Source: Thermoactinomyces vulgaris (lineage in GTDB: Bacteria; Bacillota; Bacilli; Thermoactinomycetales; Thermoactinomycetaceae). Taken from it: a DNA stretch of 24,000 nucleotides. Made by a program: the position numbers and the translations under genes. Where the stretch lies: positions 64,291 through 88,290 of the forward strand of contig NZ_REFP01000007.1 in assembly GCF_003688725.1 (NCBI RefSeq), in the 5' to 3' direction. Under the pieces are notes generated by a model. It saw only the letters and a program-made list of their open reading frames with translations. It searched no databases and was not told the DNA's origin. This document shows, one piece after another, positions 1 to 22,860 of this stretch. The first letter of the stretch is position 1, and the number at the start of each line of letters is the position of its first letter.

Positions 1-177
1 GATTTGGAAGACTGGTTTCAGCAGTGGCGGTTCCGGCACATGAAAACCGTGGAGCGGATCATCGGTTACAAAAAAGGAACCGGCGGCTCGTCCGGGGTTT
101 CTTATTTGAAAAAAGGGTTGGACCAATCCTTTTTTCCGGAGCTTTGGCATGTGCGCACAAAACTACAGGCGAGGTGA
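1..177 (+). CDS. kynA: C-terminal end of tryptophan 2,3-dioxygenase (5' truncated by window)
   Basis: Frame 1 reads [58 protein letters not shown], the conserved heme-TDO C-terminus ([24 protein letters not shown]); directly upstream of kynU. Confidence 0.9.
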
Positions 178-182
178 ATCCG

Positions 183-1466: not shown

Positions 1467-2098
1467 TGACCTGGATTGATATTTCCCAGCCCCTTCACTC
1501 CGGAATCCCGGTTTGGCCGGGAGATGCCCCGTTTCAATATGAATTCACTTACACCAAAGAAGAAAGCGGATCGGTCAATGTCGGTCAGGTGCAAATGAGC
1601 ACCCATACCGGAACCCATATTGATGCCCCTTTTCACTTTGACGAGGCGGGGAGCAAGGTGAACGAATTGGATGTGAATCTTTATATCGGCAAAGCCAGGG
1701 TCATTCATTTGCCGGGAAGAGAAAAAATCAAGGCGGAGGACCTGATGGAAAAAGAATGGGGCGGGATAAGCCGCCTTCTGATCCGGACCGATTCGTGGCG
1801 GGATCGGAACGTGTTTCCCGAAGAAATTTGTCATCTTGATCCGGATGCGGTCCCGTATCTGAAAAAACAGGGGATCCGCCTGATCGGGCTGGATGTTCCG
1901 TCCGTGGATCCGATCGACAGCAAGACGTTGCCGGCACACCATGCTTTATGGGATGCAGGCATCCACATTTTGGAGGGGGCGGTTTTGGACAATGTGGAAG
2001 AAGGGATTTATGAATTGATGGCTTTGCCGCTTCCCATTCTCGGAGGGGACGGGAGCCCGGTCAGGGCCGTGATTCGCCCGGTGGCAGAATCCCTTTGA
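1466..2098 (+). CDS. kynB: Kynurenine formamidase (KynB-type, metal-dependent cyclase family)
   Basis: STHTGTHIDAPFHF motif, IPVWPGD, GLDVPSVDPIDSKTLPAHH, GSPVRAVIRP; ATG overlaps the kynU stop (TGATG). Confidence 0.93.
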   Translation: MTWIDISQPLHSGIPVWPGDAPFQYEFTYTKEESGSVNVGQVQMSTHTGTHIDAPFHFDEAGSKVNELDVNLYIGKARVIHLPGREKIKAEDLMEKEWGGISRLLIRTDSWRDRNVFPEEICHLDPDAVPYLKKQGIRLIGLDVPSVDPIDSKTLPAHHALWDAGIHILEGAVLDNVEEGIYELMALPLPILGGDGSPVRAVIRPVAESL

Positions 2099-7302: not shown

Positions 7303-8604
7303 TTAATCCTTAGCTTGGCAATATTGTGCCTCTTTTCCGATGACCCGATAGGGACAATCGGCTTGTTCCGCCAGATAAAGAGCCGCTTCCCGGTTCCGTT
7401 CCGTTTCGCGTTCAATGACTTCATCCGGTGGATAAAAGCCTCCGCCGGAGGTTCCTTTCGGATACATTTCAAACGTGAAGGCGAAGATGTTATGTTCGCC
7501 GTATGCCCAGTCGGTCATGTCTCCATCCGTGATGTACAAGTCGCTGGATTGTTGGGGGGTGTAACCGTTGGTTTCAGCCATGGTTTCCCCCATGGTTTTA
7601 AATACCTGATAATCATCAGCGCTCATGTCATCCGGGGTGTTTTCGTAGGTGTATCCGTAGGGCCACAAGATCAATTCGCTGTAGGTGTGAAAACTGATGG
7701 CCGTTTTGATTTGCTGTTCCCCGTTGATCACCCGGCTGTTGACGAAATCGCGGAGAGCAGCAGTTTCCGGTGCGGAAAAAGGAGCTTGTCCGCGATAGGT
7801 TTCACTGGACGGATTGCTGCTGGAACCTCCGCAACAACCCCACTGGTAACCGTAGTTCCGGTTCAAGTCGGTGCCGATGGAGGAAGATCCGCTGTTGGGC
7901 TGGCGATTTTTGCGCCAGTATTGGTATTTGCCGGTGGAGATGTCGTACTCTCCCCCGTCGGGGTTCATATTAAAGAGGATGTAGATTTCCCGGGAATCGA
8001 CAATCTCTTTGATTCTCGGATCGGTGGCATAATTGTCGGTGTACAGGTGGAGCAGATAAAGAGCCATTTCAACGGTTAAATGTTCGCGGGCATGATGCAG
8101 GGAGGCGTAGAGAACTTCCGGCTCGTCTTCATCCTCTTGAACGTTGTCGCTGATCTTCACCGCCCACAGGTCACGGTTTTCATATGATTTTCCAATGCTG
8201 AATTTGCGGACGATGTCGCCGTGATCGGAAACGGCTTGATCAATCTCTTTAACCATTTCGTCATAGTTGTGGTAGCGGGAGTCGGCATCGGGGAAATCGA
8301 GGGTTCCCAACACCGGCTCGGCTTTGGGTTGAAAGCCTTTTTCTTTCAGGCTTTTCAGTTCCGTGTCGGTTGCAAGCACTCTCACATAATCCGCTCCGAC
8401 CTCTTCGATGGATGCACCGGTCCGGGCAATTTCGGTTCGTTGTTCTTTGCTTTTGACTTCAGGGATGTGGTAGAATCCGGTGGTGGAAAAACGGTTTTCA
8501 TCCAAGGATTCTGTTGCGCTGTTGACAAAGCCGGTCATCGGAAAGGCCGCCAAAAGCATCAGGGAGACAGTCAGGGAAAACCACCGTTTTTTACGGGAAA
8601 GCAT
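7303..8604 (-). CDS. Secreted zinc carboxypeptidase, M14 family, carboxypeptidase T-like preproprotein
   Basis: Signal peptide [30 protein letters not shown]; [16 protein letters not shown] zinc motif, [46 protein letters not shown]; close match from memory to Thermoactinomyces carboxypeptidase T. ATG 8604 with upstream AAAGGAG. Confidence 0.95.
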
Positions 8605-8879: not shown

Positions 8880-10232
8880 TTAAAGTTCCAATATCATTTT
8901 GGCAATCGTCATGTAAATGATCAATCCGGTTCCATCCACCAAGGTGCTGATCAATGGTCCGGAAACGACCGCCGGGTCTGCTTTCAGCCGGCTCAGGATC
9001 AGCGGCAATGCTGCGGAAACCACGGACGACCAGATGACAATAAACATCGCAGCCAACGCGACCACATAAGCCACGTCAAAGGTGACGCCCATGATCCAAG
9101 CCCGGATAAAGCCGATCAGTCCCAGCGACATGCCGAGAAACATTCCGGTGAGGAGTTCTTTTTTGATGACACGGAACAAATCTTGAAACTTGACTTCCCC
9201 GACACCGAGGGCCCGGATCAGTGTGGTGACAATTTGCGAACCGGTGTTTCCGCCTGTCCCGATTAACAAAGGGATAAAAAAGGATAGGGCAACCACTTGA
9301 TCCAGCGTGCTCTGGTAACTTTCCAAAACTGTTGCGGTATAAGCACCTCCGACAAACAAAATGAAGAGCCAGACAATCCGTTTCCGGTATAAACTCCAGA
9401 TGGAGGTTTTGAAGTAAGGTTCGGTCAACGGTTGGCTTCCTCCGATTTTTTGGATGTCTTCGGTTGCTTCTTCCTGAATGACCTCGACCACATCATCGTA
9501 GGTGACGATTCCGATCAACCGGTGTTGCCGGTCCACGACGGGTACGGCATAAAAACCGTAACGGGACAAAACCGATGCGACCTCTTCCTGTCCGGTTTCG
9601 GCCGGAACGGAAATGATATCGGTTTTGGCGATGTCGGAAAGCGGGGTTTTCGGATCGGCCAAAATGATTTCTTTGAGTGAAGCCACGCCAAAAAGTTTGC
9701 CACGTTGGTCGGTGACATAGATGTAGGAGACAATCTCCGCTTCATAACCCACTTTCCGGATGTGCCGGATGGTTTGTTCCCCCGTCCAATAGGCCCGGGC
9801 CGATACATAATCCACTGTCATCAAGCCGCCGGCCGTATCCTCCGGATAAGTCATTAGCTGTTTGATCTTTTTCCGGTAATCCGCCGGGAGCAGCCGTTGC
9901 AACTTTTCGGCTTGCAGCGGGTGGATGGCGAGCAGGAGGTCCACCACCATGTCACTGGACATTTGCTTGATCAATAACGAGGTGACCGTTTCGTCCATGC
10001 GGCTCAGCAACTCATAGGTTCTTTCCGGCTCGAGATATTCCAAAACTTCCGCGGCATGAGCCAAAGATAAATGGGTGATGAGTTCCCGTTGGAGATCCAC
10101 ATCCAAATCTCGGAAAATCTCGGCCAAATCGTATGGTTGCATTTGGCGCAAAAGCTCCAACAAGCGCGTTTCTTTTTTTTCGGAGCAGAACAGGTTTTGC
10201 AACTCTTCCTTGACGAAAGCTGCTTGACTCAT
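8880..10232 (-). CDS. mgtE: Magnesium transporter MgtE
   Basis: N domain and two CBS domains (TYPEDTAGGLMTVDYVSA), C-terminal TM domain with FVGGAYTATVLESYQ and PLLIGTGGNTGSQIVTTLIRALGVGEV. Confidence 0.96.
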   Translation of the reverse strand: MSQAAFVKEELQNLFCSEKKETRLLELLRQMQPYDLAEIFRDLDVDLQRELITHLSLAHAAEVLEYLEPERTYELLSRMDETVTSLLIKQMSSDMVVDLLLAIHPLQAEKLQRLLPADYRKKIKQLMTYPEDTAGGLMTVDYVSARAYWTGEQTIRHIRKVGYEAEIVSYIYVTDQRGKLFGVASLKEIILADPKTPLSDIAKTDIISVPAETGQEEVASVLSRYGFYAVPVVDRQHRLIGIVTYDDVVEVIQEEATEDIQKIGGSQPLTEPYFKTSIWSLYRKRIVWLFILFVGGAYTATVLESYQSTLDQVVALSFFIPLLIGTGGNTGSQIVTTLIRALGVGEVKFQDLFRVIKKELLTGMFLGMSLGLIGFIRAWIMGVTFDVAYVVALAAMFIVIWSSVVSAALPLILSRLKADPAVVSGPLISTLVDGTGLIIYMTIAKMILEL

Positions 10233-10248
10233 CTCGTTTCCCCCCTTT

Positions 10249-10287
10249 TATAAAATAAAAAACTCCCACTGACGATGAGAGCGGGAG
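10249..10287 (-). terminator. Intrinsic terminator at the 3' end of the M-box expression platform
   Basis: Minus strand CTCCCGCT-ctcatcgtc-AGTGGGAG (8-bp stem with one GU) followed by TTTTTTATTTTAT, just before the mgtE RBS. Confidence 0.8.
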
Positions 10288-10319
10288 ACAGAGCAAAACA
10301 AGCCCATTGAAGCATGAGC

Positions 10320-10490
10320 CGGCCTTTATCTCCCTCATCGAGCTTTGGCACTGCACGGCATAGGTTGTAACAACCAGCTACATTAGAAAAGACCTTCGTT
10401 CCGATCTTTTCTGCTGACCCATTGGCGTCTCTCGACATTTTTGGGCAGTAGCGTATCTCCGAACAGGAACCTCACCTAACAGAGATAAAA
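10320..10490 (-). promoter_or_regulatory. M-box (ykoK leader) Mg2+-sensing riboswitch controlling mgtE
   Basis: Minus strand contains the conserved blocks GTTAGGTGAGG.TCCTGT..GGAGATACGCTACTGCCCAAAAATGTCGAGAGACGCCAATGGGTCAGCAGAAA ... AATGTAGCTGGTTG ... CCTATGCCGTGCAGTGCCAAAGCTC. Confidence 0.95.
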
Positions 10491-10521
10491 CCATGACAAT
10501 ATAAGGTTTTGAACGTTGTCA

Positions 10522-10551
10522 AGTATAACGCTTGGCAGAAAGGGTTGTCAA
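10522..10551 (-). promoter_or_regulatory. Probable sigma-A promoter for the M-box/mgtE transcript
   Basis: Minus strand TTGACA (10551-10546), 18-bp spacer, TATACT (10527-10522). Confidence 0.6.
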
Positions 10552-10782
10552 TTGATCTTGTGTTGAAATTTCTTAAAGGACATATTGTCATTATATTTTA
10601 TTAAACAAGGGCGGGGAGGGTGCCATCCTGCAACCGGAAAGATTGAATTTTTACGGAAAATTTAGTAAAATATACTTATATATTAATATAAATTTCGTTC
10701 TTCCATGAAAGCAGTCGTTCCAGTTCTATGTGGGTCTGAATCAGATATAGAAAGGAATTCCTTTTCGGGAAGGAGATGCGAG

Positions 10783-12186
10783 ATGAGTGTGGACCACAAG
10801 GCGTTGGAACGGGCGATTGCCGAAATCACAGAGATAGCCAAGGGTTTCGGGCTTGATTTTTATCCGATGAGATACGAAATTTGTCCGGCAGACATTATAT
10901 ATACTTTTGGTGCCTATGGCATGCCGACGCGGTTTTCACATTGGAGCTTCGGCAAAGCTTTTCACAAAATGAAACTGCAATACGATTTAAATTTAAGCAA
11001 AATTTATGAATTGGTCATTAACTCTAATCCTTGCTATGCTTTTTTGCTCAAGGGAAACAGCTTGACGCAAAACAAAATGATCGTGGCTCATGTCCTGGCG
11101 CATTGCGACTTTTTTAAGAACAACGTCCGTTTTTCGGCAACTTCCAGAGACATGGTGGAGACAATGGCCGCCAGCGCGGAGCGGATCCGCCAATATGAAA
11201 TGAAGTACGGGAAAGAAGTGGTGGAGGAATTTTTGGATCATGCCCTCGCCATTCAAGAGCACATCAATCCGAGCCTGTTGGATTTAAAAGCCAACCGGAA
11301 GAAAGCGAATCCGTCAACCCCTTCCAAACCTTCCACTCCTTATGATGACTTGTGGGAATTGGATCAACCGGAAAAACACCCGAAGCCTTCTCCAAAAAAG
11401 AAACAATTCCCTGAACAGCCGGAAAAAGATTTGGTTCTGTTTTTGATGAAACACAGCCGGGTGCTGGAAGATTGGCATCAGGACATTTTGACCATTTTGC
11501 GCAATGAGATGTTGTATTTCTGGCCGCAGCTGGAAACCAAAATCATGAATGAAGGTTGGGCCTCCTACTGGCACATCCGCATCATGCGCGAGTTGGATTT
11601 GAATGAAGAAGAGGCGATTGAATTTGCCGGTTTGAATGCCTCTGTCTTGCAACCTTCCAAAACATCCATCAATCCGTATTACCTGGGATTGAAGATGTTT
11701 GAAGACATTGAACGCCGGTGGGATCATCCAACCGAAAAAGAGCAGAGGGAGTTGGGGATGAAGCCCGGGCAAGGGCGGAAAAAAATCTTTGAAGTCCGTG
11801 AGTTGGATTCCGATATTTCCTTTTTGCGGAATTACCTGACCGAAGAGTTGGTGGAAAAACTGGATTTGTATGTATTCCAACGCAAAGGCGACGAGTGGAA
11901 AATCACGGACAAAAACTGGGAGTCGGTCCGGGATGAGCTGGTGATGAGCCGGATCAACGGGGGACATCCGTTCATTGTGGTGAAAGACGGGGATTATGCG
12001 GAAAACGGAGGGTTGTATTTGCTCCACCGGTATGAAGGCGTTGAGTTGGATACGAAATATCTGGAAAAAACGTTGCCGCATGTTTATGCATTATGGGGCC
12101 GCCCGGTCTATTTGGAGACAGTGATTGAAGAGAGAAAAGTGGTTTTTTGTTATAACGGGAAAAAATGCACACGGCGCTATTTGTGA
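10783..12186 (+). CDS. spoVR: SpoVR family protein (spore cortex-related)
   Basis: [67 protein letters not shown] and [32 protein letters not shown]; ATG 10783 preceded by AAGGAG. Confidence 0.93.
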
Positions 12187-12227
12187 AAAAATGTCCGCTT
12201 CAATTCGGGGTTGAAGCGGACATTTTT
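12187..12227. terminator. Bidirectional terminator between convergent spoVR and repeat-protein gene
   Basis: aaaaatgtccgcttcaa / ttgaagcggacattttt, 17-bp perfect stem with A/U flanks. Confidence 0.88.
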
Positions 12228-12229
12228 GT

Positions 12230-15200
12230 TTATTCACCGGAACGCGGCTCCTCCTGTTGAGCATCTTCTGTTCCGGCTTCCGATCCGGTTTCCGGCTCCT
12301 CTTTACCCCGGGTTTTCATTTCCTCTTTATCCGGCGTTTCCGTTTCTTCTTCTTCCAGCTGTTTTTCTTCCCCGGTTGTTTCGGTTTCCGCGATGTCCGT
12401 TGCAGAGGAAATGGTTAACGGGAGAAAGGGTTGGACCGGGTCATCCGTTAATGGGTTGTGGTTTTGTTCATCTTCTTCTTCCTGTTTCACCGTTTTTGGA
12501 TGATGGTCGGAATTGGCGTTTTCCGGTTTTTTCTCTTCGCTTGCGACATTGTCTGTGTCCGGAACCGGGATGGCGGCAGGAATGTCATCCACCGGGGTTT
12601 GTCGGGCGAACCAGTGAAGCAATCCTTCGATGGAGGTCGTGGATTCATGATTGCGGTCGATTTGGATGACAAAGTGGTCGGCGTGATTTTCTTTCAGTGT
12701 CACCAGGCATTCCGGATGATTGGTGATGGCCACGACGGCATAGGGCGATTTAATCGGAGTGGCCAACGGGATTTGAAACGTCCGTCCGGACATATTTTCT
12801 TCCAGTTGGAAGCGGGCAATGCCTGAAACCGTGGCAGGTTGTTCATCCGCAAGGAGCGGACGGAAATTCAATTTCTCCAAGCCGATGCTTTGATCAGCGA
12901 TTTTTTCGGTGGTCACTGCTTGGTCCGTCAGATGTTCCGCAGAAATGGCGCCGGATTCAATGTGTGTTCCCTGGATTTGTTTTTTGGCGATGTGGCAGGA
13001 CAAAATCGCATCATCGTTGATATGGCGGGGGAAGATGGACTGGGATGCCAACTTGTCGGAATGAACGGCTTGATCTTGAAGCAGATCGGTTGAAATGGCT
13101 CCTTGCTCAATGTGCATTTCCTGGATTTGCCGTTGGGCAATGTGCCAGGAGCGCACGGAATCATCTGCGATATGGCGCGGCAAGATGGAATGCGAAGCCA
13201 GTTTGCCGGCATCGACCGCGTCATCTTGAAGATGGGCTTTGGTGATGGCTTCTTCTTGGATGTGCCGGCCGGAGACGGCCGTATCTTCAATATGGTGGCC
13301 TTGGATTTGCTCTTTTTCAATGTGCCGGGACAAAACGGCACCGGCTGAAATGTGCGGGGACAAGATTGCATTTTGGGCCAGATGGCGGGCCGCGATGGCT
13401 TCATCCTGGATGTGTCCGGATGCCACGGATTGTTCCGCGATATGCTTCGACTCGATTTGCTTTTCCTGAATATGCCCGGATTGAATGGCCTCTTCTTGGA
13501 TGTGCCGGCCGGAGACGGCTGTATCTTCAATATGGTGGCCTTGGATCTGTTCTTTTCTGATATGACGTGACAAAACGGCACCGGCTGAGATGTGCAATGA
13601 CCCGACAGCTTCCTCGTTCAGATGATGTTCGCAAATCGAGTTTTCATCCAGGTGTCCGCTTTGGATCTGTTGTTCCCCGATGTGGTGAGACAAAACGGAT
13701 GCGGCGGACAGATGCCGGGACGATATGGAGTCGGATGTCAAATGCCGGGAAGAAACCGTTTCATCACAGAGCAGCTCCCCGGAAATGGATTGTTCCTGAA
13801 TGTGCCGGGCGCTGATTTGCTTATCCTGAATATGCTCGGCGTTGACGGCTTTATCTTGAATATGACGGGATTTGATCTGGTGATTGGCGATTTTTTCGCT
13901 GACGATGGCATGGTCTTTTAAATGGTCCGTGTGAATTTCGCCGTGTTTCAGATGTTTTGCGTTGATTGCCCCGTCCTCAATGTGATTTTCGCCGATGGAT
14001 TGGTCTTGCAGATGGTGGCTTTGGATCTGCTTTTCCCCGATATGCCGGGATAATACGGCTTCAGCGTCAAGATGTCGGGATTCGACCGATTTTTCTCCAA
14101 GGTTGCGGGCATGGATCGCTTCATTTTGGATCAGTTCGTTGGAAATGGACTGGTCTTTGATGTGCTCCGGACCAATTTGTTTTTCCCGGATGTGGCGGGA
14201 GGTGACGGATTCGCTGTGGAGATGGCGGGAATCGATTTCGCCTTCTCCGATTTTTTCTGCGGTCACTGCTTGATCTTTCAAATGCCGTGTGTGAATTTGC
14301 CCGTTTTTGATGTGATGGTCCTCAATGGACTGATCCGCAATATGTTGGTTTTCGATGACGGAGTGGTCCAGTTTTTCTTTGGTGATGGCTCCGTCGACGA
14401 TGTGGGTGGACTGGACGGAAAAAGGTGCGATGTGATGGCCGCTGATGGTGGCGGATCCGATGTGTTTTCCCTGAATGCTTTCATTGGCCAGTTTATCCCC
14501 GTAGACGGATTCGTCCGCCAGATGTTTGTGTTGGATTTGCCCCCGGTCAATGTGTCTGGACTGGATGATCTGTTCTCCCAGATGTTCCCGCAAAATGGTG
14601 TGGTGTCCGATTTTTTCGGACGTGACGCATCCGTTGGCCAGTTTGTTCGAAGTGATGGCAAAGTCGTTGATTTTGTCGGTGGATACCGATTCCGGAGCCA
14701 GTTTGGAAGTGGAAATCGAATGGTCGATCAACTTGGAACCGGAAATGGAATGATTGGCCAAATGTTGCTCATTGATGCTTGCTTCCTGGATGTGGCGTTT
14801 GTTGATGCTGTTTTCTTGCAGGTGTTCTTCGCCGATGATTTTCCTGTTCAGATGTTTTTCCTGAATGGCGCCTTCGGCAATGGCTTCGGCATGGACACTG
14901 TTTGGGGCGATGTGTTGTTCTTTGACGGAATCCGGGGTCAAATGTTCATGGGTGATGATGCCCGGCTGCAAATGATCTTTGTGAATGGATTGATTTCGGA
15001 TTTGTTGTCCGGTGATGGATTGATGGGTGATTTTTTCCCCCGGGATGGATTGTTCCCCGAAATGGTGGGGGCTGATGGCTTTTTCCTGAATGTGGGAACC
15101 TTGAATGGAGCCGGGTTGAATGTGTTGGGATTCGATGGATTGAGATGCGATTTTGTCGCTGGTGACAGCGCCGTTTTGCAATTTGCTTTCGGAGACGGAT

Positions 15201-15901
15201 TCATCGGCCAGTTTTGCTTGGTTCACGACTTCGTTTTCCAAATGAATGGTGCGGATGGAACCGCTTTTTAATTTTTCGCCGCTGATGGACTGATCGGCCA
15301 AATGCTCATTTAAAATATGGCCCAGTGACAAATGTTTGCTTTGGATCGAGCGTTCTTTGAGTTTGCTTTCATTGATGCTGCCGTCTGATAATTTGCTGCC
15401 GGGAATTTCATTGTCTTTAATGTGTTTGGCTTGAATGGAATCTTTTTTGATGTGGCTTCCTTCAATGGAATCATGATCCAGATGGAAGGAGCGGACTGCA
15501 TTTTTGGCAATTTTTTGTGAGGTGACGGCTTCATTTTTCAATTTGGATTCGGTTACGGCCGCCTGTTCAAGGTGATCGGTGCCAATGCTGTCCGGTTTGA
15601 TCTTTTTCCCGCTGATCGACTGGTTGGCGATTTTTTCCTCCGTGACGGCGGCGTCGGCGATGTCATTGGTGTAAATCGGCGAATGGCTTTGCCGGGTCTG
15701 GGTGGATGAAGTTTTTAAAGGTTTGGATAAATCGGACAGTTCCGCGGTGTTTTCCATGTCTTCCAACAGACCGGTTTTGTTCCGTTTCTTTTTCAATTCT
15801 GCTTGCTCCAATTGAATGAGTTCCTCCAAAATTCGTTCATCGGCCATGTAAGGAGAGGGACGTTCCCTTTTTTTGGCTGAATGAGACTTTCTCTTCTTCA
15901 A
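12230..15901 (-). CDS. Large decapeptide-repeat protein (93 tandem 10-residue repeats), basic N-terminus, short C-terminal domain, acidic tail; no signal peptide
   Basis: Single 1223-codon ORF; TTG start at 15901 with GAAAGGAG RBS 8 nt upstream. Repeat consensus x-x-x-[SAQ]-[IV]-x-x-x-[HK]-[IL]. Confidence 0.9.
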   Translation of the reverse strand: MKKRKSHSAKKRERPSPYMADERILEELIQLEQAELKKKRNKTGLLEDMENTAELSDLSKPLKTSSTQTRQSHSPIYTNDIADAAVTEEKIANQSISGKKIKPDSIGTDHLEQAAVTESKLKNEAVTSQKIAKNAVRSFHLDHDSIEGSHIKKDSIQAKHIKDNEIPGSKLSDGSINESKLKERSIQSKHLSLGHILNEHLADQSISGEKLKSGSIRTIHLENEVVNQAKLADESVSESKLQNGAVTSDKIASQSIESQHIQPGSIQGSHIQEKAISPHHFGEQSIPGEKITHQSITGQQIRNQSIHKDHLQPGIITHEHLTPDSVKEQHIAPNSVHAEAIAEGAIQEKHLNRKIIGEEHLQENSINKRHIQEASINEQHLANHSISGSKLIDHSISTSKLAPESVSTDKINDFAITSNKLANGCVTSEKIGHHTILREHLGEQIIQSRHIDRGQIQHKHLADESVYGDKLANESIQGKHIGSATISGHHIAPFSVQSTHIVDGAITKEKLDHSVIENQHIADQSIEDHHIKNGQIHTRHLKDQAVTAEKIGEGEIDSRHLHSESVTSRHIREKQIGPEHIKDQSISNELIQNEAIHARNLGEKSVESRHLDAEAVLSRHIGEKQIQSHHLQDQSIGENHIEDGAINAKHLKHGEIHTDHLKDHAIVSEKIANHQIKSRHIQDKAVNAEHIQDKQISARHIQEQSISGELLCDETVSSRHLTSDSISSRHLSAASVLSHHIGEQQIQSGHLDENSICEHHLNEEAVGSLHISAGAVLSRHIRKEQIQGHHIEDTAVSGRHIQEEAIQSGHIQEKQIESKHIAEQSVASGHIQDEAIAARHLAQNAILSPHISAGAVLSRHIEKEQIQGHHIEDTAVSGRHIQEEAITKAHLQDDAVDAGKLASHSILPRHIADDSVRSWHIAQRQIQEMHIEQGAISTDLLQDQAVHSDKLASQSIFPRHINDDAILSCHIAKKQIQGTHIESGAISAEHLTDQAVTTEKIADQSIGLEKLNFRPLLADEQPATVSGIARFQLEENMSGRTFQIPLATPIKSPYAVVAITNHPECLVTLKENHADHFVIQIDRNHESTTSIEGLLHWFARQTPVDDIPAAIPVPDTDNVASEEKKPENANSDHHPKTVKQEEEDEQNHNPLTDDPVQPFLPLTISSATDIAETETTGEEKQLEEEETETPDKEEMKTRGKEEPETGSEAGTEDAQQEEPRSGE
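12869..15658 (-). repeat. 93 contiguous 30-bp coding repeats (decapeptide array) within the 1223-aa ORF
   Basis: Hand-parsed residues 82-1011 fall into exactly 93 decads without insertion or deletion, from ADAAVTEEKI to ADQSIGLEKL. Confidence 0.95.
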
Positions 15902-16111
15902 AGGTCGTACTCCTTTCTATCGGGCATTTTCCACTCTCTTTTAGGTATATGCATCAAAATGAAAAATGGAAACATGTCAAATCAAAATCGCACAACGCCA
16001 GTATTCATCGGGTTTCCTAAGAATAACCATTTATTACATATTAAAGGAGCGTGGATTTATGTTAGTATGAACCTAGCTTTGGGAGCGGCAAAAATGGAAG
16101 AGGAGGATTTG

Positions 16112-16786
16112 ATGCAAAACAGTAAAAAATTTATTAAATTGGGAATTACTGTCGCAGCATCTCTTGTGATTTCTACAGGACTTCCGGCAGGCATCACACA
16201 TGCCGCCACTTTGGAAACGGCCAACCATTCCTTGATTTCCCAGATTTTCAAACAGTTTGGTTGGGCGTTCAAGGGAAAAACGGCAAATGCACAGCCTGAA
16301 AATCCGGAAGCTTCAGAACCGTCCGGACAAACCACGGTTCCTGAAAACCAAACTGGACAAGCACCGTCCGATAACGGGCAAACGGATACAGAACAAACAG
16401 CTACGACCAAAGCAGACCAGATTATTGCAACAGGAGAAAAATATTTGGGAACACCTTACCAGTTTGGCGCTAAATCAGGACAAACCAAAACCTTTGATTG
16501 TTCTTCTTTCGTTCAACATGTGTTTAAAGAAAACGGCATTGATCTGCCGCGTAACTCCCGTCAACAATCAACGGTTGGACAAACGGTTCCTTTCAGTGAA
16601 ATCCAAAAGGGGGATTTGTTGTTCTTTGAGCTGAGCAGCAATCCGGGACGGATCGGCCATGTGGGCATTTATGCCGGGAACAACAAAATCTTGCATACCT
16701 GGGGACCGGGTGGTGTCCGGTATGACGATTTGTCCGACCGCTGGTTGAAAGAAGGGTTTGTCAAAGCCCAACGTGTGATTCAGTAA
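16112..16786 (+). CDS. Secreted NlpC/P60 family endopeptidase
   Basis: Signal peptide MQNSKKFIKLGITVAASLVISTGLPAGITHA; low-complexity linker; NlpC/P60 core GTPYQFGAKSG...FDCSSFVQHVFKENGIDLPRNSRQQ...GDLLFFE...GHVGIYAGNNKILH; AGGAGG RBS before ATG 16112. Confidence 0.92.
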   Translation: MQNSKKFIKLGITVAASLVISTGLPAGITHAATLETANHSLISQIFKQFGWAFKGKTANAQPENPEASEPSGQTTVPENQTGQAPSDNGQTDTEQTATTKADQIIATGEKYLGTPYQFGAKSGQTKTFDCSSFVQHVFKENGIDLPRNSRQQSTVGQTVPFSEIQKGDLLFFELSSNPGRIGHVGIYAGNNKILHTWGPGGVRYDDLSDRWLKEGFVKAQRVIQ

Positions 16787-16891: not shown

Positions 16892-17389
16892 TTAATTTTC
16901 CGGAACCGGGATTCTGACAGACGGTTCGGATTTCTTCAACACGTCCGCCGGATCGAAATTTCCCCCGCCCAGCCAGAGGGTGTCTTTTCCGGTCGGGCCT
17001 TTACATAGCGAAAAAGCCATCAATCCGCATGAAAAACACAGTTTTAAGCTGGGGATGTTGTCGGAAGCGACCCGGGCATATACTTTCCCCAAGGATTGGA
17101 TCGCTTGCTTCAAAAGTTGTTCCCCCACCCGTTTCCGGCGGTAATCCGGATGGACCGCGATGAAAGATTCTTCAATTCCGTAGTTTCCAAAGACAATGAT
17201 TCCCGCCACTTTTTTTTCGTCATAAGCGGCGGCGATATAAGTTCCTTCCTTCAATTCTCCAGGCGTCAACCGGTGGAACCACCGCATCGCCTGATGGGTG
17301 ATTCTCCCGTCTCCGTATCGTCTCAAAAAGCGGAGCAGGGGTTTTCGGATCCGCTCCAACGATTGCGGCGGAAATGCATGAATTTTCAT
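16892..17389 (-). CDS. GNAT family N-acetyltransferase
   Basis: GIEESFIAVHPDYRRKRVGEQLLKQAIQSLGKVYARVASDNIPSLKLCFSCGL: acetyl-CoA binding R/Q-x-x-G-x-G/A-like loop; ATG overlaps upstream gene stop (ATGA). Confidence 0.8.
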   Translation of the reverse strand: MKIHAFPPQSLERIRKPLLRFLRRYGDGRITHQAMRWFHRLTPGELKEGTYIAAAYDEKKVAGIIVFGNYGIEESFIAVHPDYRRKRVGEQLLKQAIQSLGKVYARVASDNIPSLKLCFSCGLMAFSLCKGPTGKDTLWLGGGNFDPADVLKKSEPSVRIPVPEN

Positions 17390-18708
17390 GTCGCCGTCCC
17401 CTCCGATGTATGTGAAAATCCGCTCAGGTACAATGAGTATTCAATCAAACGGCGCAAAGACCGTCTCCGGATGTTGGGTTCGTCAAATTTCATCGGCTTG
17501 GAATTGGCCTCAAAGATCCAAAGGCTTCCGTCTTTTTCAATGCCGAGATCCATCGACATTTCCCCCAGGAGGGCGTTTTGTTGGTTTTCAATCCACCGGG
17601 CGGTCCGGATGCCGACTTGTTCGATCCGTTCTTTGATACGATCTGTTTCGCTGCCAAACACGGATTGAAGTACCGTGTCGATTTTTTCGATGTGCCCTCC
17701 CATGGGAACATGGGTGGAAATTGCCCGTTCGCCGGCCACCCGGACCCCCATCCCTGATAACCCCCATCGGCCGGTGCCGTTTTTCTGGAGCAAAATGCGG
17801 ATGTCAAACGGATGGCCGTGAAAGGTGGCCAACGGGATGCCTTGTTGCAAAATATAGGCGGTTTTTTGTTTCAGCCGGTTGTACAAATCCCAAACTTCTT
17901 TCAGGGTCCGCACCCGGTATTTCTTTTTTTCCCTGGTGGTCTGGTAGGAGAGTTCATAGTGCTGCTTTTTTTTGTCAAGGCGCATCATTTTGATGCCGGC
18001 TTTTCCTTCGACCGGTTTAAAATAAAGAACCGGATGTTTGGCGGCCATGCGCTCCAATTGTTCCATGTGGTGAAGCCGGACGGTTTCCGGTAACAGCCGG
18101 TGTAAGTCGGGAGAAGCGGCAAGCTGTTGGTACAGCGTCCATTTGTCAAAAAAGCCGGGGTTAAACAGGTAAACGCCCGGCATTTGCTGCAGTTGCCGGA
18201 TGGTTTGCCGGACTTCCGGGGTTTTTTCAATCATCCGGTTGGGGATGCGATTGTACACGACATTCGGGAAGGGCAGCCGGGCCGCTTTCCACCGCGGTTT
18301 CACCGAATGAGGATCCAGCAGATATCCGTTGACGGTGGAATGGTTGCCGATGCCTTGGGGCGTAAGGACAAACACGGTGACGCCCATTTCTCTTCCCGTC
18401 CGGATCAAGTCGGCGAAATTTTGGTGATTTCCTCCAAACGGCTTTTTATTGTTTGAGGTTAATATGGCGACAAAAGGACCGGCTTGATAATGATTCTTCC
18501 GGGACAAATGCCTGAGGCGGGCGGGCGTGTGATGGGATTGGCTGGGCCTGCCGTGGGGGTTGAATCTGATTTTCGCTTTCGTGTGACGGCCGATAATGGC
18601 AGAAACCATGCCGGGAAACTGTTTTTTTGGATATCGTCTGAGCGGAACAAATTCCAGGGTGTTTTTGTTTGGTACGATGGACAGCCAGCCGGCTTTGGGT
18701 AATTTCAT
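17386..18708 (-). CDS. YheC/YheD family ATP-grasp protein, paralog 1 (start ATG 18708)
   Basis: PNVVYNRIPNR, YFKPVEGKAGIKMMRL, RRALFDIRILLQKNGTGRW-like region, MDLGIEKDGSLWIFEANSKP ATP-grasp C-terminal motif; RBS GGGGGAG. Confidence 0.85.
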   Translation of the reverse strand: MKLPKAGWLSIVPNKNTLEFVPLRRYPKKQFPGMVSAIIGRHTKAKIRFNPHGRPSQSHHTPARLRHLSRKNHYQAGPFVAILTSNNKKPFGGNHQNFADLIRTGREMGVTVFVLTPQGIGNHSTVNGYLLDPHSVKPRWKAARLPFPNVVYNRIPNRMIEKTPEVRQTIRQLQQMPGVYLFNPGFFDKWTLYQQLAASPDLHRLLPETVRLHHMEQLERMAAKHPVLYFKPVEGKAGIKMMRLDKKKQHYELSYQTTREKKKYRVRTLKEVWDLYNRLKQKTAYILQQGIPLATFHGHPFDIRILLQKNGTGRWGLSGMGVRVAGERAISTHVPMGGHIEKIDTVLQSVFGSETDRIKERIEQVGIRTARWIENQQNALLGEMSMDLGIEKDGSLWIFEANSKPMKFDEPNIRRRSLRRLIEYSLYLSGFSHTSEGTAT

Positions 18709-18728
18709 AAGATGGCGCTCCCCCTTTG

Positions 18729-20096
18729 TTAAATGAAGTTGGTCAGATTTAAACAATAATCGGTTATATATTTTGCAGACATGCGCCCGGCTTCGCGCAA
18801 ACTCGGATGCAAGAAGATGTGCCTGCCCGGTTTGGCATTCACTTCAAAAAGCCAAACGCGGCCGTTGCGGTCCACCCCGATGTCCAGCCCCAACTCTCCC
18901 AGGGTTCCGTCAATCTGTTCTTCCAATGTTTCGGCAATGGTGATGGCGGAGCGGATGATCATTTTTTTCACTTCAGAGGCATGCTGATGGAATGTTTTAA
19001 GAAGCAGTTCATCCGTCCGGATGATGGAGCCTCCGGTCCTGACATGTGTTGTGACGCAACCGAAACCGGCTGCCTTGGAGCCGATGGCAACCACTTTCCA
19101 GTGCCCTTTGCTGTCTTTGTGCATGTGAACACGGAAATCGACAGGTCGGTGGTTATTCCGGATCAACCGGATCCCCTGCTGAACGAGATATTTTTTGAAC
19201 CGGGGAGAGTGGATGCTGCCAAAATAATGGCTGATTAACGCTTTTAAAGACCGGAACAGGTGAAGGACGTTTTTGTTCCCTTTGTGGAACCGGCAATAGT
19301 AACCTTTTCCCGGGTGGTAAGTGATGCGGAAAATCCCCAGCCCCAAACTGCCGCCACTGGGCTTTAAATAGACCATCCGATGCTCTTTCAGCATTCTTTC
19401 CATGATCTCCAGAGTGGGGGGCATGTAAGTTTCGGGCATGAAAGTGGATGTTGCCGGATGGTGGTTCAGCATCTGATGGATGGACCATTTGTTGAAAAAG
19501 CCTTGGTTGAAGATTTTGCAAGCGGTGTTTTTTTTGAAGCGGTTTAAACAGGACTGAACCTGGGCCATGGATTCAGCCCGGCGATTGGGAATCCGTTCAT
19601 AAATGACATCGGGAAACGGTGAGAACAAGGGATGCCAACGATTTTGGAAGAAGTACCATCCCCGGACGGTTTGATTCTGCCAATTCACCATTTCCGGAGT
19701 AAAGACATAGATGAATGGTTTTTCGTCAAAACCCGCTTGAATGAAACTACGAAATAACTGGGTCCGGTTGCCGAAAGGTTGTTCCGGGTGGTGGCGGAAA
19801 CCGGTGGTGAGGATGCCGATCACGGGTCCGAATTTCAACGTTTTGTCGGTAAACAGAGCCCGGATGGTTCCCGTGTAAGGGAAGAGCAACTGTCTGGCGA
19901 CCGCCGGGGAAAGGAAAATCTTGTTTCCGGCCAGTGGAGCGATGATCACCCGGGTGATCATCGTTTTGTTTCCAAGTTGAATTTTAATGGATTGCCCGCT
20001 TTGGCATCCCCATAAATTCCCTAATGCCTGGCTGATCACAATGGCTTTGGCCGGAGTTTTGGAGTGAATTCGTATTTGGCAAAGGATTGATTTCAT
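18729..20096 (-). CDS. YheC/YheD family ATP-grasp protein, paralog 2
   Basis: PDVIYERIPNRRAES, YLKPSGGSLGLGIFRI, RPVDFRVHMHKDSKGHW, LGLDIGVDRNGRVWLFEVNAKPGR; RBS AGGAGGG. Confidence 0.88.
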   Translation of the reverse strand: MKSILCQIRIHSKTPAKAIVISQALGNLWGCQSGQSIKIQLGNKTMITRVIIAPLAGNKIFLSPAVARQLLFPYTGTIRALFTDKTLKFGPVIGILTTGFRHHPEQPFGNRTQLFRSFIQAGFDEKPFIYVFTPEMVNWQNQTVRGWYFFQNRWHPLFSPFPDVIYERIPNRRAESMAQVQSCLNRFKKNTACKIFNQGFFNKWSIHQMLNHHPATSTFMPETYMPPTLEIMERMLKEHRMVYLKPSGGSLGLGIFRITYHPGKGYYCRFHKGNKNVLHLFRSLKALISHYFGSIHSPRFKKYLVQQGIRLIRNNHRPVDFRVHMHKDSKGHWKVVAIGSKAAGFGCVTTHVRTGGSIIRTDELLLKTFHQHASEVKKMIIRSAITIAETLEEQIDGTLGELGLDIGVDRNGRVWLFEVNAKPGRHIFLHPSLREAGRMSAKYITDYCLNLTNFI

Positions 20097-20106
20097 ACTG
20101 ACCCTC

Positions 20107-21207
20107 CTAGCTGTTCAATAAGGCATTCGCATATTGAATGGGAAACTGGATGGCACGCCGCCGCACTTCCAGTTCTCCGGTTTTTAAGAAAACGGACCGC
20201 CCGGGTTTTGAGTTGACTTCAATAATCCAGACATCTTTGTTTTCATCGATGCCGATATCGATTCCCAGCTCTACCAGAGGACCGTGACGGCTTTCGATAA
20301 ACGGGGGCACGATTTCACTCAGATAGTTGATGGTCGAGGAAATTTTGGCTGCTTCTTGCGGGGTGTAATGCTGCTTTAAAAAAGGTTGGAACGGTAAAGC
20401 TTGCCCGCCGCCGTGCAAATTGGAGGTGATGGAATCGGGTTGGCCGGTCCGGATGGCATGCCCCGTTGTTTCCCATCTTTTTTGTCCGTTTTTTTGGACC
20501 AGAATCCTGACATCAAACGGGCGTCCATCCGGTGTGTTCAGCGACAAAAGAGGTTGAAGGATGTAACGGGTGTCCCGGATGGTTTGTTCCACCCAATGGC
20601 TGAGTTGGACCAGGGTTTGAAATTGAACGGAAAAAGGCCGGTTGAATTTCGTCCGCCCTTTCAGCAAGAAAGAGGAGGGGGGGATTTGTTCGATGGCGAC
20701 CACTCCTCTTCCGTGACTGCCGCCATTGGGTTTGATCAAAACACGGTTATGTTTCCGGAGGAAAGAGAACAGCTCTTGTGCATGGGTCAACCGCTTGGTT
20801 TCCGGGAGATAAGTCCGGATTTCCGGATGCTCTTTCAAGATGAGATAGGTTTGGTATTTCCCGCCCAAAGCTCTTCCAAGCAACCGGATTTGCGGGTCTT
20901 GGGTGATTTTTTGAACATGGGGTTTATACTTCATATAATGCCGGGCGTTGACATAATAACAACGGTCATAGATCAAATACGGCAGCGGAACCGTCTGTTG
21001 TTTCCAACGCTGATTGTGATAATGCCAAGCCGGAACCGTTCTGGTTTTCCAATGAATCCGGCCCGGATTGAATATAAAGACTTCCAGCCCCTGCTTTTTT
21101 CCTTCGAGTGTCAGTTGTTCAAAGAATGTGTGCTCTTTAAACGGAGGGTGTTTTTGGTTGTTTCCGTAGCAAACCATTATGCCAAGCCTGTTTTTTTGAT
21201 CGGTCAT
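20107..21207 (-). CDS. YheC/YheD family ATP-grasp protein, paralog 3 (short form)
   Basis: YLIYDRCYYVNARHY, LIKPNGGSHGRGVVAI, RPFDVRILVQKNGQKRW, LGIDIGIDENKDVWIIEVNSKPGR; ATG overlaps stop of upstream paralog. Confidence 0.88.
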   Translation of the reverse strand: MTDQKNRLGIMVCYGNNQKHPPFKEHTFFEQLTLEGKKQGLEVFIFNPGRIHWKTRTVPAWHYHNQRWKQQTVPLPYLIYDRCYYVNARHYMKYKPHVQKITQDPQIRLLGRALGGKYQTYLILKEHPEIRTYLPETKRLTHAQELFSFLRKHNRVLIKPNGGSHGRGVVAIEQIPPSSFLLKGRTKFNRPFSVQFQTLVQLSHWVEQTIRDTRYILQPLLSLNTPDGRPFDVRILVQKNGQKRWETTGHAIRTGQPDSITSNLHGGGQALPFQPFLKQHYTPQEAAKISSTINYLSEIVPPFIESRHGPLVELGIDIGIDENKDVWIIEVNSKPGRSVFLKTGELEVRRRAIQFPIQYANALLNS

Positions 21208-22628
21208 CGCCGTTGCCTCCTCATGATCCCGGAAGTCGTCGAAGGAGAAGGGGCGGGAGGATGTTTTCCTTGCTTGGAAAGGTATAGCACGTAGTCGATC
21301 AACCGCAACACGGACGGGCGAAAATGGCTGTTTGGATTAATCACGGTGTCATCGGTTTTGGATGGTTTGGAATTGATTTCAATCAGCCAGATTTTTCCGT
21401 GCACATCAATGGCCAGATCGATTCCGAGTTCGGCGAAATGGCCGTCGGCCAAACGTTCAAACGTTTTGGCGATGTCAAGTGCGGCGGCCCGAAGTTGGTG
21501 GATGGACGGTTTGTTTGGATAGGACAATTCCTTCAAAACATCACTTGCTTTGCGGATTGTACCTCCACGGGCCAGATTGGATACAATATGTTGAATGTTG
21601 GCAATCCGCGCAACGGAAGAAGTGATTTTCCAAACCCCTTCCTTGGTTTTTTGTGCCAAAATGCGAAAGTCTACCGGCCGGTAGTCAAATTTCATCAGCC
21701 TGAGTCCCTGTTGGGCGATGTAAGGCTGGCTTCTGATTTTTTGTTTTAACAATTTCATCAGGCTGGAATGGTTCTTCAAGGTTCGGCGAACCGTTCCCCC
21801 TGGAGTGGACAGTTGATAAATCCACCTGTTTTTGGAATGGGTTATCTTGATGATCCCGCTTCCCAGACTGCCGTTGGTCGGTTTGAGATAAACGGTGGAG
21901 TATCGTTTAAAGAGGGATAAGGCCCTCGGATCGCGGAATGAATAGGTTTCCGGCAATCGCGAACGGATTGCTTCATCTTGGACCAGGATTTGATAAACCT
22001 GTAATTTATCCAAAAACCTCTCATTAAAGATGGGGATCCGGAAAAGGTTTTTTAACAGGGACATTTTTTTCTGCAAAGATTCTTGTTGCTCGATGCGGCG
22101 TGAGTTGATGCGGTTGTAAATTACATCCGGGAGCGGGTATTTTGTACATTGCCACCGGTTTTTCTGTTTGATCCAGACGGTCGTTTCATTCCGGTTTAAA
22201 TCGATGTGTTCCGGCGTGATGACAGCGACCCGGATCCCTCTCATCTGACCGGCAGTGATGCATTCATCCAGAAATTTGGTCATCAGGCCAAAAGGTTGAG
22301 CACGCTTTTCCTGTGGATGGGCATTGATCAAAATGCCAAAAACAGGTCCAAATCGCAAGCGGAGAGAATGTGCGTCAAAATGGGCCCGAATCCATGGCTG
22401 AGGGTTCATTTTCAATTGCTCGGCAAGCTCAGAGCTGATGCAAATCAGTTTATGGTTCATGCGACTGAAAGCGACTCGTCCTTTTGCGATGGCTGAACCA
22501 AATGCGACTGAGAAAACCGGGGTTTTTATCTCCAATTTTTTGGCCAAAGCCTGACTCATCACCAGATCAATGTGGTGAGGAAGCTGATGTTGCGACAAGA
22601 TTTGAATTTGTACTTGTGCCAGCCCCAT
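21204..22628 (-). CDS. YheC/YheD family ATP-grasp protein, paralog 4 (start ATG 22628)
   Basis: PDVIYNRINSRRIEQQ, YLKPTNGSLGSGIIKI, RPVDFRILAQKTKEGVW, LGIDLAIDVHGKIWLIEINSKPSK; RBS GGAAGGGG. Confidence 0.88.
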   Translation of the reverse strand: MGLAQVQIQILSQHQLPHHIDLVMSQALAKKLEIKTPVFSVAFGSAIAKGRVAFSRMNHKLICISSELAEQLKMNPQPWIRAHFDAHSLRLRFGPVFGILINAHPQEKRAQPFGLMTKFLDECITAGQMRGIRVAVITPEHIDLNRNETTVWIKQKNRWQCTKYPLPDVIYNRINSRRIEQQESLQKKMSLLKNLFRIPIFNERFLDKLQVYQILVQDEAIRSRLPETYSFRDPRALSLFKRYSTVYLKPTNGSLGSGIIKITHSKNRWIYQLSTPGGTVRRTLKNHSSLMKLLKQKIRSQPYIAQQGLRLMKFDYRPVDFRILAQKTKEGVWKITSSVARIANIQHIVSNLARGGTIRKASDVLKELSYPNKPSIHQLRAAALDIAKTFERLADGHFAELGIDLAIDVHGKIWLIEINSKPSKTDDTVINPNSHFRPSVLRLIDYVLYLSKQGKHPPAPSPSTTSGIMRRQRR

Positions 22629-22656
22629 GACAATCCCCTTCCGCCTGTAAAATACT

Positions 22657-22664
22657 AATGTATG
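22657..22664 (-). promoter_or_regulatory. Sigma-E-like -10 element (CATACATT) upstream of the ATP-grasp operon
   Basis: Minus strand CATACATT fits the sigma-E -10 consensus CATACANT; no convincing -35 found. Confidence 0.35.
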
Positions 22665-22860
22665 GTATGTGGGCGTCAACCGCATGGTGAATAAAACAGG
22701 CTTGGCTTCGGCGGAAGGGATGGAAAAAAAGCGGGAAAATCGTTAGGATGAAAAAGAGGGGGACTGAAGCCGGACGGGTGGAAGGATGACCTTGTCCACG
22801 GTCACGGTTTCCCGGGATGGTCAGACAGGTTGAAAGGATTGCAAAGAAGGAGGATGACGG

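Follow-up and report, generated by a model that had tools for sequence, protein, structure and literature searches.

A histidine- and lysine-registered decapeptide-repeat protein of Thermoactinomyces vulgaris is related to phage tail-fibre shafts and may form a spore-surface fibre

Which structure, if any, is built by a protein that consists for the most part of ten-residue units carrying histidine or lysine at a fixed position? This question is raised by a locus in a 24,000-nt stretch of the Thermoactinomyces vulgaris genome (NCBI RefSeq assembly GCF_003688725.1, contig NZ_REFP01000007.1, positions 64,291 to 88,290 of the forward strand), the whole of which is referred to here as the window and in whose numbering positions are given unless another locus is named. 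Convergent with spoVR, the window contains an open reading frame (ORF) for 1223 amino acids at 12230-15901 on the minus strand, called the fibre gene below. The composite reading reached here is that its product is a member of the WIAG-tail family that forms a trimeric spore-surface fibre with exposed rows of His and Lys, and we hold this reading to be evenly poised between right and wrong. The parts of which it is composed carry strengths of their own, and these are given with the evidence for each part.

Translation and parsing of the ORF showed that residues 82-1011 (12869-15658, minus strand) form a shaft of 93 decapeptides (decads) with zero indels and the consensus x-[DE]-x-[SA]-[IV]-x-[SG]-x-[HK]-[IL]. 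Position 5 was Ile in 63 units and Val in the remaining 30, while position 10 was Ile (50 units), Leu (42) or, once, Phe. Position 9 was His in 63 of the 93 units (68%), Lys in 24, Leu in three, and Gln, Ala and Asn in one unit each; units 64-81 carry His throughout. The first-pass annotation of this DNA, which was made from the letters alone, had described 93 in-register decads without indels, had counted residues 5, 9 and 10 by hand and had drawn attention to a long His array; on re-parsing, the register was exact, all hand counts were correct and the periodic array proved real. Its regularity is far beyond chance. The shaft contains 93 K+R, 133 D+E and 92 His residues, and three HxH motifs were found in its 930 residues. 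A basic residue at position 8 accompanied His at position 9 in 33 of 63 His units versus 2 of 29 units without His (p = 2e-5); where position 9 was Lys, an acidic residue at position 8 and Thr at position 6 were favoured. The same Arg-His pairing at positions 8 and 9 was also seen in a member of the family from Paenibacillus (GEGEVTGRHI).

Pairwise identity between units averaged 26%, the His codons of the array were mixed (CAT 34, CAC 29), and Tandem Repeats Finder, applied to the DNA, returned short fragments only and thus nearly nothing. The array is therefore old and held by selection, and is not the product of recent amplification. A single recent event was detected, namely a duplication with an offset of eight units (240 nt), which has left units 70-73 and 78-81 with about 90% nucleotide identity across 111 nt. 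No higher-order periodicity beyond the decad was found in the Thermoactinomyces protein. On the plus strand, antisense ORFs of up to 399 amino acids cross the repeat region within 12839-15271 (e.g. 14072-15271); they are a by-product of the periodic codon pattern. In a record of Paenibacillus thiaminolyticus (L010, 86-700, minus strand) an antisense ORF of this kind, encoding 204 amino acids that begin with 'MMAYYFSFADVAACYFS...', has been called as a gene, and this call is almost certainly spurious.

The gene was compared between assemblies, an assembly error being the concern that the first-pass annotation had raised for the repeat count. Contigs encoding exactly the SpoVR protein of the window were present in 72 blocks of a metagenome collection. 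The six longest of these loci are independent assemblies; the adjoining gene was always 3672 nt long and showed 0-4 nucleotide differences, one locus having a local patch. The count of 93 was thus upheld, and the length of the array is not an assembly artefact. The patch lies in locus L001 (gene at 9951-13622), where residues 757-794 of the ortholog are occupied by a 38-residue segment resembling units 57-60, with 27 amino acid changes and unchanged length. It derives either from intragenic gene conversion between units or from an assembly chimera.

Homologs of the shaft were found in phages by several types of search. In PHROGs, 19 families matched, the best being phrog_892 ('tail fiber protein') with E = 3.1e-122 in 15 stretches. 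A tblastn search of 50,697 phage genomes yielded 76 records with 21-27% identity, annotated as tail fibre, minor tail protein or host specificity protein and including T7-like cyanophages as well as phages of Arthrobacter, Bacillus and Alteromonas. In BFVD, predicted models of phage tail fibres were matched by Foldseek at probability 1.0. Among the best 120 matches of a search of 5.8 billion proteins (19-30% identity), some carried the domains Phage_T7_tail, Peptidase_S74, BppU_N, Prophage_tail or YadA_anchor. The decads begin right after the T7 tail-fibre N-domain, at about residue 165-172, in the relatives P0049, P0087 and P0113; they stand before the S74 intramolecular chaperone in P0022, P0061 and P0084 and before the YadA anchor in P0059. 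Architectures with the T7 tail-fibre N-domain, the S74 chaperone or the YadA anchor are those of homotrimeric fibres. Taken together, these matches make it near certain that the decad array shares its ancestry with the shaft repeat of phage tail fibres. A likeness to tail fibres had been suggested beforehand for the Lys-form units, and the PHROG and tblastn matches to tail-fibre and minor tail proteins bear it out.

The His-dominated form of the unit had, in addition, been called unusual. This stood in comparison with the phage relatives, since position 9 in 132 retrieved relatives was Lys in 61% and His in 9%, though the query was rich in His; it did not stand within the protein's own family, in which His-rich arrays are common (see below). 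Pfam searches with the whole protein and with four fragments gave no match at E <= 10, PF25296 ('Decapeptide repeat region') included; this model matches the relative P0001, below threshold only. The sole solved chain with decads belongs to the head-decoration protein of Legionella phage LME-1 (PDB 9EG4, chain H) and holds about four of them. The protein is described as trimeric in the 9EG4 paper, its distal part being unmodelled, and the paper has no supplement text on the stalk.

For the fold of the shaft, AlphaFold2 was used as a monomer prediction on 20 decads plus the tail domain, with an alignment of 44 sequences composed of internal windows, family members and 20-unit runs of homologs. 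The decads were modelled with pLDDT 76-93 and with the same pattern, '------HHH-', in every unit: six extended or non-regular residues are followed by a one-turn helix at positions 7-9 and then by position 10, and no strand or bridge occurred in 200 residues. Three strands were predicted, with low confidence, in the WIAG-tail domain. An earlier run on 16 decads with six non-overlapping internal windows had reached a pLDDT of 53.5 and was unusable. Foldseek found no match in the PDB (best E = 2.3), and sequence searches of the PDB gave weak matches only, to designed pentapeptide solenoids (4yei, E = 3.5e-4) and to DotG. The pentapeptide-repeat (Rfr) fold was considered as a candidate and rejected, both by sequence pattern and by family models. 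The i-2 positions are polar or charged (position 3 is Q, G, E, K or D and position 8 is E, R, K, D, S or H) instead of small and buried; no Pfam Pentapeptide match was obtained, and the scores for HetL (22.7 bits) and Alr5209 (17.9 bits) compare with cutoffs of 260 and 125, respectively. The stacked beta-solenoid proposed in the first-pass annotation is therefore unsupported, because the confidently modelled decads contain no beta strands and no PDB structure matches, the pentapeptide signature also being absent; the model, being that of a monomer, is not decisive. Position 9 was placed by AlphaFold2 in the one-turn helix and not in a strand. It is probably solvent-exposed, and the His is not needed for the fold, since His and Lys interchange within the protein, between orthologs and across the family.

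The shaft is flanked by three modules that set the protein apart from phage fibres. The N-terminal module, residues 1-81 (15659-15901, minus strand), comprises a K/R-rich stretch, the family motif ELxWLD[DE], which reads EELIQLEQ here, and a linker. When eight N-termini of the family were aligned, a K/R-rich stretch of about 15 residues was conserved and was followed by an ELxWLD[DE]-like motif with invariant E-L. Neither a signal peptide nor a transmembrane segment was found, no Kyte-Doolittle value (19 residues) exceeding -0.22 within residues 1-60 or 0.96 anywhere in the protein, and the wall-anchoring domains SLH and LPXTG were not present in the protein either. The WIAG-tail domain comprises residues 1012-1115 (12557-12868, minus strand). 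Residues 1027-1099 (12605-12823) scored 41 bits with NCBIfam model NF012201, whose cutoff is 33 (E = 1.5e-10), and covered model positions 5-77 of 80. In an alignment with four relatives the residues G, F, VA, P, C, G and W were invariant; the WIAG motif itself reads H-W-F-A-R here versus W-I-A-[IV]-G. The acidic low-complexity tail, residues 1116-1223 with the stop codon (12230-12556, minus strand), has 34 D+E versus 10 K+R and a pLDDT below 50 where modelled, and tails alike occur in P0123, P0124, L037 and L040. Neither the N-terminal 81 residues nor the WIAG-tail domain nor the acidic tail had a match in PHROGs, in the INPHARED phage genomes or in IMG/VR, and a profile of the WIAG-tail domain found no relative in the PDB.

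Relatives of the C-terminal domain were retrieved sparsely: a word-indexed protein search gave one, and HMMER over 1.8 billion representatives gave six. The scarcity is due to the divergence of the domain and to breaks of short-read assemblies within the repeats, entries at NCBI being marked 'partial'. The family was recovered from metagenomes by means of a degenerate DNA pattern for the core VAMT[DN]HPxC, an alignment of five sequences being too divergent for a genome scan; a shorter related DNA pattern gave chance matches only in IMG/VR. In this way 14 further true members were obtained. Their uninterrupted decad runs comprised 55-122 units, so that 93 units are ordinary for the family and are exceeded in other members. 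Position 9 was almost always His or Lys throughout the family, and the fraction of His ranged from 0.20 to 1.00 (e.g. 59/59 in L045, 25/26 in L025 and 54/100 in L040). A basic N-terminal module, a long decad array and a WIAG-tail domain were common to the 14 members and to an ortholog from another genus (L009); this architecture as a family trait is our own generalisation and not part of the NCBI definition. All members with a named host came from endospore formers, i.e. Thermoactinomyces, Paenibacillus thiaminolyticus and Caldalkalibacillus salinus. The protein can thus be assigned, with near certainty, to the WIAG-tail family of the Bacillales. A giant-virus match, gene BQ1_177 of Chrysochromulina parva virus BQ1, has been reported (PMC12085832); if the match is correct, the WIAG-tail domain is not confined to Bacillales.

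Arrays of nearly identical units with almost exclusively His were seen in L010 (263-1257, Paenibacillus thiaminolyticus), L025, L042 and L045, with units such as GEGEVTGRHI/GAGEVTGHHI or SHGAITAEHV (59/59 His). These arrays have been homogenised recently, in contrast to that of Thermoactinomyces, whose units are diverged. N-gaps inside the array interrupt the NCBI records of the near-all-His members.

Among the species-representative genomes a single one matched, that of Thermoactinomyces intermedius DSM 43846 (Thermoactinomycetaceae, Bacillota); the nucleotide identity was 97.6% over 19.7 kb. Its ortholog was identical at residues 1-1024, and codons 1-1011 contained no non-synonymous and two synonymous differences (dS 0.003); the fibre gene is under purifying selection. 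A hot-spot of divergence from T. intermedius (L007) was located at window positions 12000-13000, comprising residues 1025-1223 and the 3' end of spoVR. The last 200 residues differed by 46 amino acids and one 4-residue indel, with dS 0.25-0.31 and dN/dS of about 0.3-0.4. Given that dS is 0.003 elsewhere in the gene, the pattern in the module of WIAG-tail domain and acidic tail points to import of an allele rather than to accelerated evolution in place, as would be expected for an exposed module. Divergence also climbed to about 5% past window position 17000. The ortholog in L009 was collinear with 35% identity and carried, in the first 17 units, the same choice of His or Lys at position 9 in 12 of 17, which indicates that this choice is unit-specific and conserved and does not reflect random drift.

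The case for a place on the spore draws on the genes beside members of the family, where the signal is stronger than in the window alone. A GT2 glycosyltransferase gene was located directly 3' of the family gene in L034, L046, L032, L045 and L010, and one gene away in L031. Genes for dTDP-rhamnose synthesis were present as rmlD in L034 (above the NCBIfam cutoff) and as rmlA/rmlB types in L034, L045 and L010, and GT4 enzymes were also encoded at family loci. In L046 (7852-9751, minus strand), two adjacent homologs of CotS-family kinases (APH fold) stand beside the WIAG-tail gene and a gene for a double-GT2 protein; their best NCBIfam match was TIGR02906, with 129 and 95 bits versus a cutoff of 172.7. 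YheC/D ATP-grasp genes adjoin family genes in L034 and L009. L010 encodes an Ena-domain protein according to precomputed annotation (Pfam A_ENA), a match that was not reproduced with a local copy of Pfam.

Glycosyltransferases, rhamnose enzymes and enzymes of the CotS and YheC/D types mature the spore crust of B. subtilis and the glycosylated BclA nap of B. anthracis. In endospore formers, a fibre-like protein without an export signal is typically a product of the mother cell that is deposited on the spore. From the lack of an export signal and the spore-coat-type neighbours we infer synthesis in the mother cell and deposition on the spore surface, a location that we hold to be slightly more likely than not. 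The first-pass annotation had considered a role in the spore envelope on account of nearby spore genes, and this link gains strength at the level of the family from the gene neighbourhoods. As pure speculation, the acidic Glu-rich tail could be conceived as a substrate for amino acid ligation of the RimK/TTL type by YheC/D enzymes.

In the composite reading, the protein would thus consist of four modules: a basic N-terminal anchor, a rod of 930 residues built of decads, a small beta-rich WIAG-tail domain and an acidic disordered tail. Three chains would combine into one long fibre without branches, in the manner of the homologous repeat of phage fibres; homotrimeric assembly, for which the domain contexts of the homologs argue, appears rather probable. 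The core would consist of the aliphatic residues at positions 5 and 10; position 9, at the end of the one-turn helix, would face the solvent. The N-terminal module would be anchored in an outer layer of the spore, with the WIAG-tail domain and acidic tail distal, an orientation suggested by analogy to BclA and by the variability of the C-terminal 200 residues. An ancestral Lys would have been changed to His in 63 of 93 units, creating regular rows of imidazoles, 189 per trimer. From the shaft composition given above, the net charge of the rod would swing at about pH 6 from about -40 to up to about +52 per chain if all 92 His were protonated, and the His rows could also bind divalent metals. 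A role of the His residues in charge tuning, possibly with metal binding, is put forward tentatively, as somewhat short of an even chance. More doubtful still is the wider proposal that, next to BclA naps and Ena pili, WIAG-tail proteins make up a third and so far undescribed class of surface fibres on endospores, in which a captured phage shaft repeat has been retuned from Lys to His and, with exposed imidazoles in their hundreds, acts as a pH switch or metal array.

Several observations weigh against the composite reading. The Thermoactinomyces locus has no glycosyltransferase gene beside the fibre gene, and the adjacency to spoVR was not conserved in the other loci examined. The conserved motif upstream of the gene, described below, fits neither the sigma-E nor the sigma-K consensus of B. 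subtilis cleanly, its -10 box agreeing at about 6 of 8 positions and its -35 spacing being off. The structural model had a pTM of 0.40 and a pLDDT of 45-69 in the WIAG-tail domain. Also, the coupling of a basic position 8 with His at position 9 is not general, as other members of the family carry Glu-His; the pairing is therefore lineage-specific.

Of the alternatives, a monomeric beta-solenoid with a His ladder would form one coil per decad or per pair of decads and would align the His of position 9 in one or two columns. The strict hydrophobic period of five and ten residues would suit such a fold, as would the weak matches to pentapeptide solenoids (4yei, HetL), the Pfam Pentapeptide_4 domain precomputed on some homologs, and the 20-residue super-repeat of the Paenibacillus member (GEGEVTGRHI GAGEVxGHHI). 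The polar or charged residues at positions 3 and 8, the HetL score far under its cutoff, the strand-free model and the lack of a structural match in the PDB all argue the other way; homologous decads, moreover, sit in trimeric fibre architectures, and the Thermoactinomyces protein lacks a higher-order period. We consider this fold improbable. A tail fibre that still serves a prophage, a tailocin or a gene-transfer particle is very improbable indeed, in spite of the strong phage matches of the repeat region: no phage gene was found within 10 kb on either side, where the neighbours are chromosomal genes for sporulation and housekeeping, the GC content of the fibre gene resembles that of its neighbours, and no virion or tail-attachment domain was detected in the protein. 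The same chromosomal context is, furthermore, kept in T. intermedius and in six metagenome assemblies, and the flanking modules have no relatives in the phage collections.

The remaining alternatives concern the place of the protein rather than its origin. It might belong to the hyphae, vegetative or aerial, as a fibre or an adhesin, or else to the matrix, into which lysis or a non-classical route would release it; the spore genes nearby would then be there by coincidence. Clusters of glycosyltransferase and rhamnose genes also serve S-layer and cell-wall glycoproteins, and the unconserved adjacency to spoVR would agree with such a role; we nevertheless regard it as unlikely, as the protein has no signal peptide, SLH domain, LPXTG motif or transmembrane segment, as YheC/D, CotS-like kinases and a precomputed Ena domain recur beside members in several genera, and as the named hosts are endospore formers throughout. 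Alternatively, the protein could remain inside the mother cell as a ruler or scaffold that sets the spacing or thickness of spore layers, in which case the number of repeats would matter and no surface appendage would be formed. The absence of indels in 93 units, the identical length across strains and assemblies, the cytoplasmic character of the sequence and the vicinity of spoVR, a cortex-formation gene, and of a cell-wall hydrolase gene are in line with a ruler. The number of repeats, however, spans 55 to 157 units among family members, and a variable, recombining C-terminal domain and the glycosyltransferases adjoining in other genera better suit an exposed structure, so that we give a ruler little credence.

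A spore-surface fibre of the type favoured here can be compared with several known systems. The WIAG-tail proteins of NF012201, such as the partial entries from Paenibacillus thiaminolyticus and Caldalkalibacillus salinus, share the C-terminal domain, the basic N-terminus, the long array with the His/Lys register at position 9 and often the acidic tail; their loci differ from the window, which has YheC/D, GNAT, NlpC/P60 and spoVR genes, whereas most others have GT2 and rhamnose genes. Phage shafts (PHROG 892, PF25296, T7-like cyanophage fibres and minor tail proteins of Arthrobacter phages) have the same period and the consensus a-D-x-A-V-T-x-x-K-[IL]. Compared with these, the Thermoactinomyces protein is distinguished by the excess of His at position 9 (68% here, about 9% in relatives), by His units with a basic position 8 and by an uninterrupted run of 93 units versus at most 61 among the retrieved non-WIAG relatives, and it is without a virion-attachment or receptor-binding domain, a phage context or a PF25296 match.

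The likeness to BclA and to the collagen-like fibres of Pasteuria is one of analogy and not of homology: a short N-terminal anchor, a long repeat rod of the trimer type, a small C-terminal domain and no signal peptide are found in both, and glycosyltransferase and rhamnose genes adjoin WIAG-tail loci. The linkage of BclA to rml genes and the spore fibres of Pasteuria form the background of this comparison. Unlike the collagen Gly-X-Y triplet of BclA, the repeat here is a decad in which Gly has no set place, and the C-terminal domains are unrelated by sequence. Trimeric fibres with periodic His in collinear sites are also known from phage T4, where the gp37 tip holds Fe by HxH motifs, with His buried on the three-fold axis, and gp12 holds Zn. 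In the shaft described here, with its three HxH motifs, His recurs every ten residues and can be exchanged for Lys, and this speaks for a place at the surface. Pentapeptide-repeat (Rfr) proteins share the hydrophobic residue at every fifth position, and differ by their small buried i-2 residue, which is absent here.

The fibre gene is real, as seen from its control signals. A ribosome-binding site, AAAGGAG (15910-15916, minus strand), lies 8 nt 5' of the TTG start codon at 15899-15901, and the product of 1223 amino acids was also called by the JGI and Logan gene callers. A bidirectional intrinsic terminator (12187-12227), with a 19-bp stem between an A-run and a T-run, is shared with the convergent spoVR and sits between the spoVR stop (12186) and the fibre-gene stop (12230). 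Upstream, a conserved motif, TTCCAT-N10-GATG-CATATACCTA (15942-15971, minus strand), is a candidate promoter with a -10-like box that starts with CATA. This bipartite 30-nt motif, TTCCAT-N10-GATG(C/A)ATATACCTA, has identical spacing in the window and in the L009 ortholog of the other genus (about 7754-7783, plus strand). A copy of its 3' box with one mismatch, AATATACTTA, was found at 10669-10678 on the plus strand, 27 nt 5' of the spoVR ATG; the window contains two matches to the 3' box versus 0.36 expected, and two or more were reached in 6 of 100 shuffles. The intergenic region upstream of the fibre gene yielded no promoter of the sigma-70 type. Assignment of the motif by hand to sigma-E, sigma-K, sigma-F or sigma-G was tried and dropped, none giving a clean fit to the consensus, and the motif is for this reason reported only as a conserved CATA-type motif. 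The CATA start of the box is suggestive of a mother-cell promoter.

The fibre gene is neighboured by spoVR on one side and, on the other, by the divergent gene for an NlpC/P60 hydrolase. The latter starts about 58 nt from the start of the fibre gene, the gene callers taking ATG 15959, so that the 5' end of the hydrolase gene contains or overlaps the candidate promoter of the fibre gene; a purely mechanical ORF for the hydrolase (15881-16786, plus strand) would overlap the fibre-gene start. No obvious ribosome-binding site precedes the mechanical start of spoVR, ATG 10705, and the Pfam match does not set in until residue 30, so the true start may lie further downstream. Beyond the hydrolase, a GNAT acetyltransferase gene is followed by four tandem paralogs of YheC/D-type ATP-grasp enzymes of 456, 455, 366 and 493 amino acids (16892-22685, minus strand), and a GerA germinant-receptor operon lies farther off. 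At the edge of the window, genes for a kynureninase-like protein and a cyclase of the kynurenine formamidase type (24-2098, plus strand) overlap by 4 nt; they form a tryptophan-degradation pair unrelated to the fibre gene.

NCBI already had an entry for the WIAG-tail domain, as had Pfam and PHROGs for the repeat; new are the architecture of the family, its link to gene clusters of the spore-coat type, and the His-for-Lys variant of the phage shaft repeat. In the literature, no paper was found on the function of WIAG-tail or decad-repeat proteins, nor one describing the decad repeat, and in the PDB no solved structure of an extended decad array was found. The repeat is widespread, occurring in phage tail fibres, in giant-virus fibres and in some autotransporter stalks, and a cellular family with 55-122 perfect decads is a good substrate for solving its fold. 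The natural series from 20% to 100% His offers a test of how a rigid protein rod can be made responsive to pH or metals. Spores of Thermoactinomyces are airborne allergens (farmer's lung), which lends some practical interest to the surface proteins of this genus. If the protein is indeed a spore-surface fibre, it would add a structurally new class to the spore appendages of Thermoactinomyces, Paenibacillus and their relatives and would be a case of a phage fibre module reused in cell differentiation; and if WIAG-tail proteins do form a third class of endospore fibre, adhesion or aggregation of spores, or sequestration of metals by them, may depend on pH or metals.

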